Assembly (NCBI GenBank): GCA_964589775.1 | Contig: CAZPUN010000020.1 | Location: 30,118 to 62,117, forward strand | Direction of reading: 5' to 3' | Origin: an uncultured archaeon | GTDB taxonomy: Archaea; Asgardarchaeota; Thorarchaeia; Thorarchaeales; CAZPUN01 | Length of the DNA: 32,000 nucleotides | Shown: positions 3,773-27,883 of the stretch, piece after piece | Layout of the letters: the number at the start of each line of letters is the position of its first letter | Position numbering within the stretch: position 1 is the stretch's first letter | The notes under the pieces: model-generated | Database searches by the model: none | Told to the model about the DNA's origin: nothing | The model's input: only the letters and a program-made list of their open reading frames with translations | Translations under genes and position numbers: made by a program

Positions 3773-3852
3773 TTTATTGAGGCGATGATGAAGTTACCCC
3801 TGTAGGACCTACCCCGGAATGACTCAAGAAGAGCAGGCTGAGCCTCAATAAA
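3773..3852 (+). ncRNA. Box C/D 2'-O-methylation guide sRNA
   Basis: Perfect C box ATGATGA (3785-3791) and D box CTGA (3838-3841), flanked by an 11-bp inverted repeat TTTATTGAGGC/GCCTCAATAAA; GC-richer island in an AT-rich intergenic region. Confidence 0.85.
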
Positions 3853-6908: not shown

Positions 6909-9547
6909 TATTGAACCCTCCTGAAATAGTTGTTTCCTGCACGCATTATCATTTTACCATCCTTAAATTCATATTCGATAATGTATTTCAAATCATGATC
7001 ATTAATATCCCTAAGACGTACAACATAGCTCTGTACATATAGATTTCCTAATGCTTTTGCACCATGTTCAATAATGGATGCGATCATATCTTCTTTTGAT
7101 GTCAATCCAAGTTCTGACAAAACTGGTAACTTGTTTTCCTTCAATAATTTGATTTTATTCTCGATTTCTCTTTGAATTCGGATTCGCTCAGATGAAATTT
7201 CATTGTATAGATTTCCAATTACATCAGCAATAATCTCGAAAGTGTATAGTCGCTCAGGAGGTAAAGGCTCCTTAGGTAATGGAAGATCTTTCAATTCCTC
7301 AGGAACAACATAAGATGCGCGAACCTCATCTAATGTAGGAACATGAACTGAAGAGGGATCTGGAAACTCAGGTTCCGGCGGGGGCTCCTCCCCAATTTCT
7401 AAAGCGGCTCTAACCTGTGCCTGATAAAGCTCTTTAGCTTGCTGCAATTCAACTGATAATTTTTGCTTCTCATCCATGGCTTTCTTGAGAGCTGTTTCAT
7501 AGATCTGCTGAATTTCTTTTTCACGTGCCCAGCGTCTCTTTTCATTCTCTTGTTGGACTTTTTGCACTTCAGCCTCCCAAGCCTCTATCAGTTTATCGTA
7601 TGTAGTACGTAATAGCTTGGCTTTCTGAAGAATTGGAGTGACTGTATCTTCAAGAGTGATTATTTGCTCAGATGAGTTCTTGAGAAATGCGAACCATTCA
7701 TTTAAAACTGTTAATAGTTCCCCATCAATATTTGTCTTTCCAAACAAATCTAAAAGATTTTGAATATCATGCATTTCAGATTCTGATACATCAAAATCTT
7801 GGGCAATAATTGACATTGCTGAAACAAATTCACTTGAACTTTTAATATCCATATTAAGATCAAGCAACCGCGATATCGTCTCCCTTGAACTTAAAAGATC
7901 AAGTATATGAGGCGAAACTCCAGACAATCTAGCTTTAATTTCATTTAGAATTGTTTTTGCATCTTCAATATCAGCCGCAGATACTCCGGGTTTGTCTACA
8001 ATTGAGCTGTCATTCTCAATTTTATCTAGGGAGATATTTATGAATTCATCTAGTGTAATTAGATCATCTATCTTTAGTGAATTCATCTTTTCAAATACAC
8101 GAGATAAAATGTTCAAACTGATTTCTACAGGAGTTTTATTAAATTGACCATAATAGTCTACACGACCAAGTTCAGAGATAATATTCTCATCAAAATAATT
8201 TTTCAGCCTATCCGAAATTATATCATGAACTGATTGTGTATCTTCGAAACTTGGTTGAATATTCTCAGTAATATTATCGATTATCGCCTTAGTCATACTC
8301 ATAATTAGGAATCGTTTCAATTCATATGCAAAATAGGAAGCCACTTTCTGAGCGTAGGAAGTGAAATAGACCAGAGTACCCTTTAATTGCCATGCTTTAA
8401 ATGAATTGGAAGAATCAAGTACTTTGTAAGACTTGATTAAATTCTGGGCAAATAATAGAGCAATGCCACGCTTAATTCCATCAAACTCTGAACCACGAGA
8501 TTTTATTTCTTCTTGTAATTTATTAATATGGTCTTCAGGAGTACCTTCAAACCCACTTCGAAGATGTTCGTCAACAAGATCTTTGAAAGATTCGCTCGCG
8601 GACTTGAACTCTTCTGCATATTCGTTTGCAGCCTTAAAATATGTGTCCAGCGTCGTTAATTTTAGATTCGAAAAATCAATAAAACGCATAAATCCTTCAA
8701 CAGCAATTTTTATAATATCAATCTCTTCTTGCGTGTAGGAATACTTGTTTATGAATTCTAAAATTTCTCGACCTGCAGAAGGTATATAAACAGCCAAATT
8801 CTGAATAGCTGATAAGCCAAGTAATCTGTATCGTAGATGTTGTAATGCTTTTGATTTTACCTTAAATGGATTGAGAAACGTGATATTATCAATTTTATCA
8901 ACAATTGATGCTGCAGGTCTAAATGAGTAATCTTCTAAGTAAGAACCTTGAACTTCTAAATCAACATCAACATCTGTAATTCTCAATTTTCGTGTATCAT
9001 AGTCTTCTTGATATTCACGGTCCATAACATTACTATAGATTATTGTGGCAAAACGATCTGCAAATGTCGAAAGAACCGATAATTTTTGATCTTCAGATAA
9101 ACCAGATAATTCGGAGGCAATATCAATATCATTCATCTTTCGTGTAATTGCATCGCCATCTAATATTAACTTTCTAGGGTCTACAATGCCGCGCTCCCAT
9201 TCTAAAACAGTGAGAAAACCACTTGTTTCCAAAGAACTACCGCGAGTCAATAGCAAGGTTTCTGGAAAAATTCTATGACTTGATTCGCTCATTATTTTCC
9301 ATTCAATCGATTCCAACTCGAATTGCGATGACTTTTTCAAACTTTCATAAATGAAATTAAATATCGACGAAATACTCATAACAACATCTTCAGCTCTATT
9401 GGACAGTTCTCGCCCAGCTCCACGAGCGCCACCAATTGATGACCCATCCTTTGTAGTATAACCAATTATTGCTGCGGAAGCACGCCTAATCTCTTCCACT
9501 GTGCTCGGTGATGAAACACTTTTCTTCGAGACCCTAGTTATGGACAA
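6908..9547 (-). CDS. Large (879 aa) hypothetical protein: alpha/beta N-terminus, long helical body, coiled-coil + Pro-rich segment
   Basis: Long ORF, TTG start with a strong GGAGGAG RBS; family not recognised. Confidence 0.85.
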   Translation of the reverse strand: MSITRVSKKSVSSPSTVEEIRRASAAIIGYTTKDGSSIGGARGAGRELSNRAEDVVMSISSIFNFIYESLKKSSQFELESIEWKIMSESSHRIFPETLLLTRGSSLETSGFLTVLEWERGIVDPRKLILDGDAITRKMNDIDIASELSGLSEDQKLSVLSTFADRFATIIYSNVMDREYQEDYDTRKLRITDVDVDLEVQGSYLEDYSFRPAASIVDKIDNITFLNPFKVKSKALQHLRYRLLGLSAIQNLAVYIPSAGREILEFINKYSYTQEEIDIIKIAVEGFMRFIDFSNLKLTTLDTYFKAANEYAEEFKSASESFKDLVDEHLRSGFEGTPEDHINKLQEEIKSRGSEFDGIKRGIALLFAQNLIKSYKVLDSSNSFKAWQLKGTLVYFTSYAQKVASYFAYELKRFLIMSMTKAIIDNITENIQPSFEDTQSVHDIISDRLKNYFDENIISELGRVDYYGQFNKTPVEISLNILSRVFEKMNSLKIDDLITLDEFINISLDKIENDSSIVDKPGVSAADIEDAKTILNEIKARLSGVSPHILDLLSSRETISRLLDLNMDIKSSSEFVSAMSIIAQDFDVSESEMHDIQNLLDLFGKTNIDGELLTVLNEWFAFLKNSSEQIITLEDTVTPILQKAKLLRTTYDKLIEAWEAEVQKVQQENEKRRWAREKEIQQIYETALKKAMDEKQKLSVELQQAKELYQAQVRAALEIGEEPPPEPEFPDPSSVHVPTLDEVRASYVVPEELKDLPLPKEPLPPERLYTFEIIADVIGNLYNEISSERIRIQREIENKIKLLKENKLPVLSELGLTSKEDMIASIIEHGAKALGNLYVQSYVVRLRDINDHDLKYIIEYEFKDGKMIMRAGNNYFRRVQ

Positions 9548-25836: not shown

Positions 25837-26852
25837 CTTAATTTACAATTCAATGCAGACCATAATGCATCAGTGTCAGGACGTACCAAATATTCAGATT
25901 TCCCATTTTTAATTAAGATTCTTTCGTTTGGATCGTCAAGAATAACGCCAATAATATCTGCAGGTATTCCATTTTTATTCAATACATCAACAATATTTTT
26001 TGCTAATTCATTCTTAGCAACAATAAGAAGAGCTCCACTACTAATGAGTTCCAGTGGATTAATATTAAGCAAATTACAAATCATTTTCGTCTCTTCTGCG
26101 ATTTTTAATTTTTCAAAATAAACTTTAAATCCAACTTCGGATGCATCTGCAAGCTCATGCAGCGCATTTGATATACCACCCTCAGTAGGATCGTGCATTG
26201 CAACAACTCCACCGGTTTGATATGCCAATACACCATCATTTACAACACTAACGTATTTGCGAAATGATTTTGCACTTTCAACAATAGAACGTGGTAAGTG
26301 GTCTAGTAGAAGTGATTCACATTCCTCAGCAATTATTGCAGTGCCTTCAATACCAACAGATTTTGTAAGAATTAATACATCACCTGCTTTTGCACCTGAA
26401 GAGGTTACAAATTCATTGTGACTGGTCTCGCCAATCATGGTACCAATAATAATGGGCTGCTCTAAGAAATCAGTGACTTCAGTATGACCACCAATAATGA
26501 AAATACCCAATTCACCAGCAGCTTTTCGGATTTGCGAAACAATAATATTTAGCATGTCCTCCGTTGATCTTTTAGGCAGCAAAATTGTAGTAAGCATCCA
26601 TTTAGGTCGAACTCCATGTGTCGCAACATCATTTGCATTTATATGAACAGATAACCAGCCAATACTTTTGATTGACCCAGTTATAGGATCTGTTGTAATT
26701 ATAAGATCTCGGTCTGAAATCCGTATTATAGCCGCATCTTGTCCTAGTGCAGGTCCTACAATCACATTTTCATCATTAATTGGCAAATTGTTGAAGACGA
26801 CTTTTGTGAGAATCTCTGGCGGAACCTTTCCAGGAAGAAGATATTTTTCCAT
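25833..26852 (-). CDS. AIR synthase-related (PurM/HypE-like) protein
   Basis: GKVPP, GPALGQDAA, TDPIT, NANDVA, IIGGHTEVT and MHDPTEGG; lacks the HypE C-terminal PRIC. ATG 26852 with GGAGTGA RBS. Confidence 0.9.
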   Translation of the reverse strand: MEKYLLPGKVPPEILTKVVFNNLPINDENVIVGPALGQDAAIIRISDRDLIITTDPITGSIKSIGWLSVHINANDVATHGVRPKWMLTTILLPKRSTEDMLNIIVSQIRKAAGELGIFIIGGHTEVTDFLEQPIIIGTMIGETSHNEFVTSSGAKAGDVLILTKSVGIEGTAIIAEECESLLLDHLPRSIVESAKSFRKYVSVVNDGVLAYQTGGVVAMHDPTEGGISNALHELADASEVGFKVYFEKLKIAEETKMICNLLNINPLELISSGALLIVAKNELAKNIVDVLNKNGIPADIIGVILDDPNERILIKNGKSEYLVRPDTDALWSALNCKLS

Positions 26853-26881
26853 TTTAGACTTCACTCCCTACTAGGTACGGG

Positions 26882-26982
26882 TGCGTGCCACTTTGTTCCT
26901 GCTCATGAGACAGAATATCATCGTATTCAAATGAACTCTCAATTCTGCACTATGAGAGCTAGGAAAATACAAGTGGCACGCA
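26882..26982 (-). ncRNA. Box H/ACA pseudouridylation guide sRNA (K-turn hairpin), predicted target LSU rRNA helix 69
   Basis: Minus strand folds as a 12-bp outer stem, a lower stem UCCU(A)GCUC/GAGCAGGA, a pocket UCAUAGU/CUCAU, an upper stem GCAGAAU/AUUCUGU and a K-turn UGA/GAUGAU. ACA lies 13-14 nt below the upper stem, and a TTTAAAT TATA-like element lies about 25 nt upstream. Confidence 0.8.
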
Positions 26983-27043
26983 ATTCAAATATGGAAAAGT
27001 TAATTTAAAGATTGTCTATAAAGACATACGAGGGAGAATTAAA

Positions 27044-27883
27044 TTGAACGACCAAGTAAAAATTGCACTAATTGGAGGTTCTGGCTTATATCATTTAATT
27101 GAGAATCCTAAAATTACTATTTTAGATACACCATGGGGCAAGTCTCCACGTATTGATATTGGGTACATTGGGATACATAAAATTGCATTTGTATCGCGAC
27201 ATAGTAAACCTGGAGTGTCGGATAAACAGACGCACGCTGTACCACCGCATATGGTAAATTATAAGGCATATATTTATGCATTAAGACAATTAGGTGTTGA
27301 AAGAATTATTGCGACTACGGCAGTAGGTTCATTAAACAAAAAAATTAAACCGGGTGATTTCGTCATCTTAGATCAGTTAGTTGATTTTACGAAAAGAAGA
27401 AGCTACACATTTTTTGACGGAACAGTACCTATAGAAGTTGAACCAAATAAGATAATCAATGGCGTCGCACATGTTGATTTTACTGAACCATATTGCCCAG
27501 AAATCCGAACTGCATTAATTGAAAGTTGCAAATTACAAAACATAAAGTGTCATACAAGTGGAACATATGTAGCAATGGAAGGTCCACGTTTTGAAACTAG
27601 AGCCGAAGTAAAATTACTTTCGTCATGGGGAATGGATGTAGTAGGCATGACACAATCGCCAGAAGCAATATTGGCACGCGAATTAACCATGTGCTATGGG
27701 GTTGTATCAATTGTAACAAACTATGCCGCAGGAATAAGTAACCAGAAAATCACGCATGAAGAAGTTGTTGAACTATTTAATCAAAAAATGAAAGATTTAA
27801 AAAGTATTATACAAAATGCGATTAAACTCATTCCAGAAGAAAGAAATTGTACGTGCAAAAGTGCTCTCGATGGTGCTCAATAG
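27044..27883 (+). CDS. mtnP: S-methyl-5'-thioadenosine (or methylthioinosine) phosphorylase
   Basis: IGGSG, TPWG, SRH, AVGSL, HVDFTEPYC, MEGPRFETRAE, VVGMT..PEA.LAREL, VTNYAAG and C-terminal CxC. The NYAAG motif means MTI-phosphorylase specificity is also possible. Confidence 0.9.
   Translation: MNDQVKIALIGGSGLYHLIENPKITILDTPWGKSPRIDIGYIGIHKIAFVSRHSKPGVSDKQTHAVPPHMVNYKAYIYALRQLGVERIIATTAVGSLNKKIKPGDFVILDQLVDFTKRRSYTFFDGTVPIEVEPNKIINGVAHVDFTEPYCPEIRTALIESCKLQNIKCHTSGTYVAMEGPRFETRAEVKLLSSWGMDVVGMTQSPEAILARELTMCYGVVSIVTNYAAGISNQKITHEEVVELFNQKMKDLKSIIQNAIKLIPEERNCTCKSALDGAQ

Follow-up and report, generated by a model that had tools for sequence, protein, structure and literature searches.

Archaeal box H/ACA RNAs, as described in reviews and primary papers, consist of one to three hairpins with an ANA box after each. 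In the guides of Pyrococcus, the stem from the pocket to the GA of the K-turn is strictly ten layers high (PMC4652768). The ANA box of an archaeal guide is expected 14-16 nt below the upper helix; productive Pyrococcus guides have a spacing of 14 or 15 nt, and a spacing of 13 nt is among the features of pairings that were unproductive in vitro (PMC2377435). In the classic single-hairpin sRNAs, such as Pab91/Pf9 of Pyrococcus and sR115 and sR435 of Sulfolobus islandicus, the ACA is carried by a short 3′ tail that is single-stranded. Lineage-specific departures at the base of the hairpin are seen in the atypical H/ACA-like RNAs of Pyrobaculum and Sulfolobus. In eukaryotic H/ACA RNAs, the distance from the ACA to the 3′ end is strictly 3 nt (PMC7991803, PMC11077068), and the 5′ hairpin is followed by the H box, an internal ANA-type box between helices that the Cbf5 homolog still reads with its PUA domain (PMC7991803). 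Some yeast snoRNAs are released from their precursors by RNase III (PMC7991803). With respect to helix 69 of 23S rRNA, the H/ACA guide sR-h45 of Haloferax volcanii is directed at this helix; it has two stem-loops that guide the loop uridines U1940 and U1942, and no clamp is described for it (PMC7075261). A literature search on Asgard H/ACA RNAs or an enclosed ACA, with incomplete coverage of the literature, found no paper.

The window analysed here is a 32,000-nt stretch of contig CAZPUN010000020.1, from an archaeon of the Asgard class Thorarchaeia. On its minus strand, at 26982-26882, a 101-nt hairpin is located upstream of an AIR-synthase-family gene (Table 1). The hairpin had a minimum free energy of -40.8 kcal/mol, compared with -23.9 ± 3.2 kcal/mol for dinucleotide shuffles (n = 200; z -5.35), and 0/200 shuffles folded equally well or better. 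The first-pass annotation of this DNA had taken the hairpin for an unannotated H/ACA guide RNA. The minus-strand sequence that it gave was identical to 26982..26882, letter for letter. It had also named multiple dispersed, MITE-like copies as an observation that would speak against a guide RNA; the hairpin is present in a single copy in the 2.16-Mb genome (35% G+C) and is therefore not a dispersed repeat. An Rfam scan of the window at gathering thresholds gave no match, HgcE (RF00060), HgcF (RF00058), HgcG (RF00064) and snoR9 (RF00065) included. When E values up to 10 were accepted for the region 26600-27300, no H/ACA family was matched and only unrelated chance matches were returned. Among sequencing runs, the stretch was found only in the probable source DNA run and in no RNA run.

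Table 1. Features of the clamped RNA and its surroundings (positions in the window; RNA letters are given for the transcribed strand).
Feature	Position	Strand	Remarks
TATA-like box TTTAAATTA	27001..27009	-	18 nt 5′ of where the outer stem starts; same sequence in L076, a close relative
Outer (clamp) stem, 5′ strand UGCGUGCCACUU	26971..26982	-	Probable RNA 5′ end; perfect 12-bp pairing
Internal loop, 5′ side, GUAUUU	26965..26970	-	Faces the ACA; 6-7 nt, poorly kept among relatives
Lower stem, 5′ strand UCCU-A-GCUC	26956..26964	-	8 bp plus one bulged A
5′ guide UCAUAGU	26949..26955	-	Complement of ACUAUGA in 23S helix 69; CAUAGU nearly invariant
Upper helix H2, 5′ strand GCAGAAU	26942..26948	-	7 bp; pocket-closing G.U pair in 28/28 sequences
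K-turn	26917..26941	-	Non-bulged strand U-GA; bulged strand C-GAU-GA-U; C-stem G(A)GUUC/GAAU(A)C capped by AUUU
Upper helix H2, 3′ strand AUUCUGU	26910..26916	-	Fold and pair counts
3′ guide CUCAU	26905..26909	-	CUC pairs with GAG immediately 5′ of the target U; family consensus YUCAU
Lower stem, 3′ strand GAGCAGGA	26897..26904	-	Fold and pair counts
ACA box	26894..26896	-	Invariant (28/28); on the 3′ side of the internal loop, not on a free tail
Outer (clamp) stem, 3′ strand AAGUGGCACGCA	26882..26893	-	Followed by CC, here and in most relatives
Spacer to start codon, 29 nt	26853..26881	-	Shine-Dalgarno-like GGGAGUGA at 26868-26861; no T-run, no promoter room
AIR-synthase-family (PurM/HypE/ThiL-like) gene, 339 aa	25833..26852	-	Directly 3′ of the RNA wherever the RNA was found

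A hairpin with a lower stem, a pocket loop and an upper stem was obtained from the single-sequence fold, from RNAalifold (n = 26) and from the pair counts (n = 28). The tandem G.A pairs of the K-turn stack on the upper helix H2, and the distance from the pocket to the K-turn amounts to ten layers (7 bp, the U.U and two G.A), so that the element is a 10/5/8 in the notation with three numbers that Toffano-Nioche et al. use (PMC4652768). The 3′ guide and the lower stem together measure 13 nt in this copy. The ACA begins 13 nt after the upper helix here and in the close relative L076; most relatives have 14 nt at this place, and several have 15 nt. The K-turn is of the C/D type with a GAU bulge, tandem GA/GA and U-U, just as the first-pass annotation had described it, and the 12-bp stem that was said to enclose the ACA is perfectly paired. 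The ACA itself was also read correctly; the spacing, called about canonical, was close but not exact, since 13 nt is one short of the 14-15 nt that is productive in Pyrococcus. No free single-stranded 3′ ANA tail was found, as a 12-bp helix with the 5′ end starts directly after the ACA.

The closest homolog of the protein encoded downstream (72% identity) was found on an NCBI contig; its divergent MTAP-like neighbour is the same as here, and the same RNA precedes its gene (L076). Between the two copies, the element is 91% identical, compared with 50% for the upstream flank, 66% for the downstream spacer and 75% for the coding sequence. The differences consisted of a scrambled 5′ loop, a change of the first guide base and two positions that were altered on both sides and still pair, namely a lower-stem U-A to G.U and the K-turn 3n.3b U.U to C-G. 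The outer stem, the upper helix, the ACA and the G.A pairs were the same in both. At the homolog loci L077 and L078, no member of the family was present upstream of the gene, and a related-locus search with the downstream protein yielded distant, uninformative loci only.

In a sister family, the AIR-synthase-family gene was fetched from 30 genomes, the thirtieth locus running off the contig edge. A related RNA with the same 5′ guide was located directly upstream of the gene in 26 of the 29 genomes with an assembled flank. As the first-pass annotation had proposed, a covariance model (R2) was built from these syntenic intergenic regions, and it finds the family upstream of the same gene. A search with R2 in a phylum-wide sample returned one copy each in 23/27 sister-family genomes and 0/123 in other Asgard families, where the zero reflects the reach of the model and is no proof of absence. 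For genus g4, represented by three genomes (loci L089, L092 and L095), the gene was present and R2 detected no copy of the RNA genome-wide; the RNA may have been lost or have diverged in this genus. Less flexible searches were unproductive. A DNA similarity search of 40 relatives gave no homolog, and a covariance model from the single sequence (R1) gave no match in 86 relatives because it was too specific. Strict IUPAC patterns, applied to 87 genomes of the class, 400 Asgard genomes and metagenome contigs, matched at the level of the controls with no match having a pairing upper helix; they missed the relatives because these have 7 nt, not 8, between their 5′ guide and the GA of the K-turn.

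To count pairs, 28 sequences were aligned with R2. In this alignment 93.4% of the cells pair, compared with 26.5-53.3% when the partners were slid by 1-3 columns. The covariation score was 0.482 versus 0.05-0.09 for the slid controls, and 0/500 shuffles reached any of the observed measures. An alignment fitted to a model favours its structure; an independent MAFFT alignment with RNAalifold (26 sequences) gave the same helices, predicting four, with changes on both sides in 17 of the 27 pairs. Together, the slid controls and the independent RNAalifold result argue that the covariation read from these sequences is real. The outer stem had both-side changes in 11 of its 12 pairs and pairing in 95.8% of the cells across the 28 sequences; it is 12-14 bp long across the family and has at most single-base bulges in relatives. 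Both-side changes were also seen in 6/7 modelled pairs of the lower stem, 4/5 of the upper helix H2 and 3/4 of the C-stem.

The invariant positions comprised CAUAGUG (with one A-to-G that still pairs as G.U), GA-GAG, C-N-AUGA, U-UCAU and ACA. Within the K-turn, the GA, GAG and C-N-AUGA strands do not vary, whereas the 3n.3b position does, being U.U here, C-G in L076 and G.A in most relatives. The G.U pair, invariant in 28/28, fixes the transcribed strand, and a reading of the hairpin on the opposite strand was rejected on the basis of the invariant G.U pairs. The K-turn, the ACA, the pocket and the outer stem, whose conservation the first-pass annotation had made a test of its reading, were kept with compensatory changes in 27 other genomes. 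The element is almost certainly a functional, conserved RNA.

The genome's own 23S rRNA was located at G000:C23:99368-103215, with helix 69 reading GCCGGGAG-UA-ACUAUGACUCUC. On the segment GGGAG-UA-ACUAUGA, the 5′ arm of the pocket forms seven Watson-Crick pairs with ACUAUGA and the 3′ arm three with GAG, without any G.U, and the U left unpaired is the equivalent of E. coli U1911. The two arms thus flank an unpaired U-N with duplexes of no less than 3 bp each (3+7 bp; P ~0.013 for a random pocket). When the pocket was compared with mature 23S and 16S rRNA, helix 69 scored 10 and the next best site 6; among random 7+5 pockets (n = 5000), 1.26% reached a score of 10 anywhere. The ACUAUGA that the first-pass annotation had expected in the cognate helix 69 is therefore present and forms part of the best rRNA match. 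The 23S sequences of three relatives were obtained by an Rfam LSU search on other genomes. For each of them, the helix 69 site ranked first for its own guide, making 4/4 genomes with this one. A search for 23S fragments in five relatives found nothing, probably because the rRNA is unbinned in those assemblies. The single A-to-G change in the 5′ guide of the family keeps the rRNA pairing as G.U.

The 3′ side of the pocket fits this target less well. The duplex of the 3′ arm is weak, with 3 bp here, and weaker still in two relatives. The base 5′ of the target U varies together with its partner in helix 69 (G here, A in one relative and C in two), and the sister-family guides always have U opposite it, so that two species have a mismatch and there is no co-variation with the rRNA. 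In addition, UCAU and the next purine of the 3′ guide are invariant in the 28 sequences, although the U1911 register uses just two or three of them for pairing. The 5′ guide also opens with UCAU, and the UCAU of the 3′ guide complements AUGA in the loop of helix 69. This invariance is greater than pairing at U1911 would require. Because of the weak 3′ arm, the mismatch that does not covary and the surplus invariance of UCAU, the equivalent of U1911 is predicted as the target with a confidence little better than even. The loop uridines guided by sR-h45 we take to be the equivalents of E. coli 1915 and 1917, and we know of no report of a helix 69 pseudouridine at the 1911 position in archaea.

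The same observations bear on the possibility that the hairpin is the RNA of an H/ACA particle for which U1911 is not the substrate, or not the sole one. The modified base could be the U1921 equivalent, addressed through strong pairing of the 3′ arm (YUCAUR with UAUGAN), or it could lie in another RNA; alternatively, the particle could act as a chaperone of helix 69 without modifying it. In the loop of helix 69, the 3′ arm does complement an unbroken stretch of five or six bases (1915/6-1920), and in Pyrococcus the 3′-guide duplex weighs more than the 5′ one (PMC2377435). However, in the U1921 register the 5′ arm has hardly any pairs, and U1911 is the top-ranked bipartite site in all four genomes. 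As to another RNA, one perfect 5+7 complement occurs on contig C59, where a small ORF starts, but about 0.06 sites of that type per genome are expected by chance. Overall, this alternative is unlikely, and U1911 is retained as the predicted target.

Several further observations were made on the rRNA and on possible partners of the pocket. The complement on contig C59, AUGAG-UG-ACUAUGA, is the sole perfect 5+7 match in the genome; it lies at about 7815-7840 (-) of G000:C59 (L138 about 1025-1045) and overlaps the ribosome-binding site and the start of an ORF of 83 aa. The genome's own 23S rRNA contains an insertion of 800 nt directly 3′ of helix 69 (G000:C23:101409-102208; L002 about 2128-2927). 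At its junction, exon 1 ends with ...ACUAUGACUCUC and exon 2 begins with UUAAGGUAGCC, and the last base of the guide's predicted target lies 5 nt upstream of it. A LAGLIDADG-like motif (by eye) is present in an ORF of the insertion, and no Rfam group I intron matched the insertion. In three relatives, no insertion was present at this site. Separately, a box C/D sRNA was observed at 3777-3848 (+) of the window, with a 7-bp terminal stem and a D′ guide that has an exact 10-base match to mature 23S at position 2554; helix 69 is not the best match of this guide.

The genome was also scanned for other H/ACA hairpins. A relaxed descriptor gave 218 loci versus 140 in the reversed control, most of them false positives, and only three hairpins were convincing: the one described here and two belonging to a two-hairpin H/ACA RNA at G000:C13:54345-54555 (+) (L140). 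In hairpin 1 of this second RNA, the base below the ACA is closed by a box C/D-like K-turn. In hairpin 2, the ACA is in a 3-by-3 internal loop; a rod of ~18 bp closes this loop, and a T-run comes next. In G001, G017 and G021, the homologs of this hairpin have an ANA box and then an immediate closing helix of ~10 bp with a different sequence, and compensatory changes in this closing stem were seen by eye in the three relatives. The clamp is therefore not peculiar to the RNA at 26982-26882, as a second H/ACA hairpin family of the lineage is clamped likewise.

Upstream of the outer stem by ~20 nt, the sister-family genomes share a promoter-like motif, CTCGATTA-(N)-GTTATTAG (L079, L081-L108, region about 20-40 nt upstream). 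From its fixed distance, transcription is predicted to begin with the first paired base or just upstream of it. Across the family, 20-35 nt separate the RNA from the ATG, with a Shine-Dalgarno-like motif, no T-run and no room for a promoter. The conserved promoter, the lack of a T-run and the lack of room for a second promoter lead us to infer that guide and mRNA form one primary transcript. As far as the sequence arrangement can tell, the guide RNA is probably the leader of the AIR-synthase-family mRNA. The downstream protein is a generic PurM/HypE/ThiL-like member of its family and fell below every equivalog cut-off. An internal promoter within the conserved CUUUUCAU was also considered and appeared unlikely, as the copy in this genome reads GUCUCAU and is not TATA-like.

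This arrangement raises the question of whether the hairpin is instead a cis-acting leader, that is, a switch of the AIR-synthase-family mRNA responding to a ligand or protein, for example through an L7Ae-bound K-turn, with a merely convergent resemblance to H/ACA RNAs or with L7Ae and Cbf5 recruited for regulation. The RNA is indeed found directly 5′ of the same gene and on the same strand wherever it occurs, without a terminator or room for a second promoter. Moreover, regulation of archaeal translation by L7Ae through a K-turn in the leader is known (PMC6298567). Against a switch, the K-turn is ~60 nt from the ribosome-binding site and within a closed hairpin. The invariant unpaired bases complement helix 69 exactly in the geometry of a guide pocket, and an invariant ACA is found 13-15 nt from that pocket. 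The other H/ACA RNA of this lineage, which is unlinked, is clamped in this way too and is followed by a T-run, and the Thermococcus ortholog of the gene was without such a leader and had no room for one upstream. A purely regulatory role in cis is consequently considered distinctly improbable, and a guide RNA that is carried in the leader is preferred.

Regarding the release of this guide, the first-pass annotation had suggested either excision from the leader of the PurM/HypE-like mRNA or circularisation. The first of these fits the conserved promoter, the absence of a T-run and the class-wide link to the gene; the second found no support. For circularisation, the outer stem would be a processing stem for the tRNA-splicing endonuclease, and the guide would be excised and circularised like archaeal rRNAs and some C/D box RNAs. 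Circular small RNAs occur in archaea, and the helix does bring the ends of the RNA together. A bulge-helix-bulge motif (two 3-nt bulges on opposite strands with a 4-bp helix between them) was searched for and not found in the outer stem or the flanks, which makes such excision and circularisation unlikely. The stem is a perfect 12 bp here, with at most the single-base bulges of the relatives, and the flanks are unpaired beyond it. This route is accordingly rated as very improbable. That the element is a chance hairpin, a repeat or a terminator, nothing more than an inverted repeat in an intergenic region, can practically be dismissed given the single copy, the class-wide covariation, the absence of a T-run after it and the failure of any of the 200 shuffles to fold as well.

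For release from the leader, a candidate enzyme is encoded. The genome has a class 1 RNase III of 223 aa (G000:C49:7166-7837; L139 1408-2079 +), comprising a nuclease domain with QRLEFLGD and a dsRNA-binding domain. An RNase III domain was detected in 30/31 genomes of the order and in 0/4 archaeal control genomes. A helix of 12-14 bp is short for a classical RNase III substrate, and cleavage by this enzyme at the foot of the clamp is put forward purely as a testable idea.

The hairpin presents the parts that are used by Cbf5-Nop10-Gar1-L7Ae, namely a K-turn, a bipartite pocket, a lower stem of 8-9 bp and, 13-15 nt below the upper helix, an ACA that does not vary. Nop10, Gar1 and a TruB/Cbf5-family ORF of 353 aa are encoded in the genome. 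The fold (z -5.35), the covariation, the pocket match and these partner proteins support the claim of an unannotated H/ACA guide RNA. On this sequence evidence the element is classed as working like an H/ACA guide, and very probably it is one. That it is an H/ACA-type particle RNA is considered highly likely. The complete reading, in which it is a single-hairpin box H/ACA-type pseudouridine guide RNA, representing a family of this Thorarchaeia-like Asgard class and acting by the mechanism set out below, is held with good but lesser confidence.

According to the proposed mechanism, transcription would start at the conserved promoter, at approximately the first base of the outer stem, and continue into the AIR-synthase-family gene, so that the resulting mRNA would carry the guide as its 5′ leader. 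The outer stem of 12-14 bp, coming directly after the ACA, would place the ACA in an internal loop of 6-7 nt by 3 nt. By joining the ends, it would steady the short, A/U-rich lower stem and protect both ends from exonucleases, and it would mark the point at which guide and mRNA are separated, possibly via the RNase III of the lineage. The PUA domain of Cbf5 would read the ACA in the flexible internal loop, as dyskerin does with the eukaryotic internal H box. The pocket would then bind helix 69 by pairing ACUAUG(A) to its 5′ arm and GAG to its 3′ arm, and present the U1911 equivalent at the active site of Cbf5. A helix directly after the ACA might hinder the PUA domain; we know of no solved H/ACA particle with a helix at this position.

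Set beside the classic archaeal single-hairpin sRNAs (Pab91/Pf9, sR115, sR435), the clamped RNA is alike in its ten layers, in an ANA box ~14 nt below the pocket and in the encoded partners Nop10, Gar1 and a TruB/Cbf5-family protein. It differs in spacing (13 nt in this copy versus 14-15 nt) and in the position of the ACA, which is in an internal loop followed by a helix of 12-14 bp and not on a short single-stranded tail. The lack of a free tail on the ACA departs from the textbook archaeal H/ACA RNA and defines a new structural variant: an apparently undescribed RNA in which a conserved 12-bp helix closes the internal loop that contains the ACA. The atypical RNAs of Pyrobaculum and Sulfolobus also depart at the hairpin base in a lineage-specific manner, but in the opposite direction, since the clamped family adds a helix. 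Like sR-h45, the clamped RNA is directed at helix 69, with the U1911 equivalent, in place of the two loop uridines, as its predicted target. The ACA is flanked by helices as in the eukaryotic 5′ hairpin with its H box; there, however, the next helix is a second guide hairpin and the K-turn is absent, whereas here the strand returns to its own 5′ end. An end-joining helix that delimits or protects a guide RNA, as the clamp would, is also found in the terminal stem of box C/D sRNAs and in the stems at which RNase III (Rnt1) processes polycistronic snoRNAs of yeast.

The clamped family provides a covariation-backed model of an Asgard H/ACA guide RNA, and it shows that archaea do not universally follow the rule of a free 3′ ACA tail. 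Model R2 and the geometry of the clamped RNAs explain why these escape standard descriptors and Rfam. Since an internal ACA between helices corresponds to the state of the eukaryotic H box, these RNAs offer a natural test of how the PUA domain of Cbf5 reads its box. The tie between a guide RNA and an mRNA leader across a whole class poses a testable question of maturation, for which the RNase III of the lineage is the candidate enzyme. A broader reading, which we regard as rather unlikely, is that the H/ACA guides of Thorarchaeia have been rebuilt as a class, with an internal ACA, ends locked by a helix or a second K-turn, release by RNase III from longer transcripts and a helix 69 pseudouridine at 1911. 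If that were true, the rebuilt guides of Thorarchaeia would represent a snoRNA-style biogenesis in close archaeal relatives of eukaryotes.
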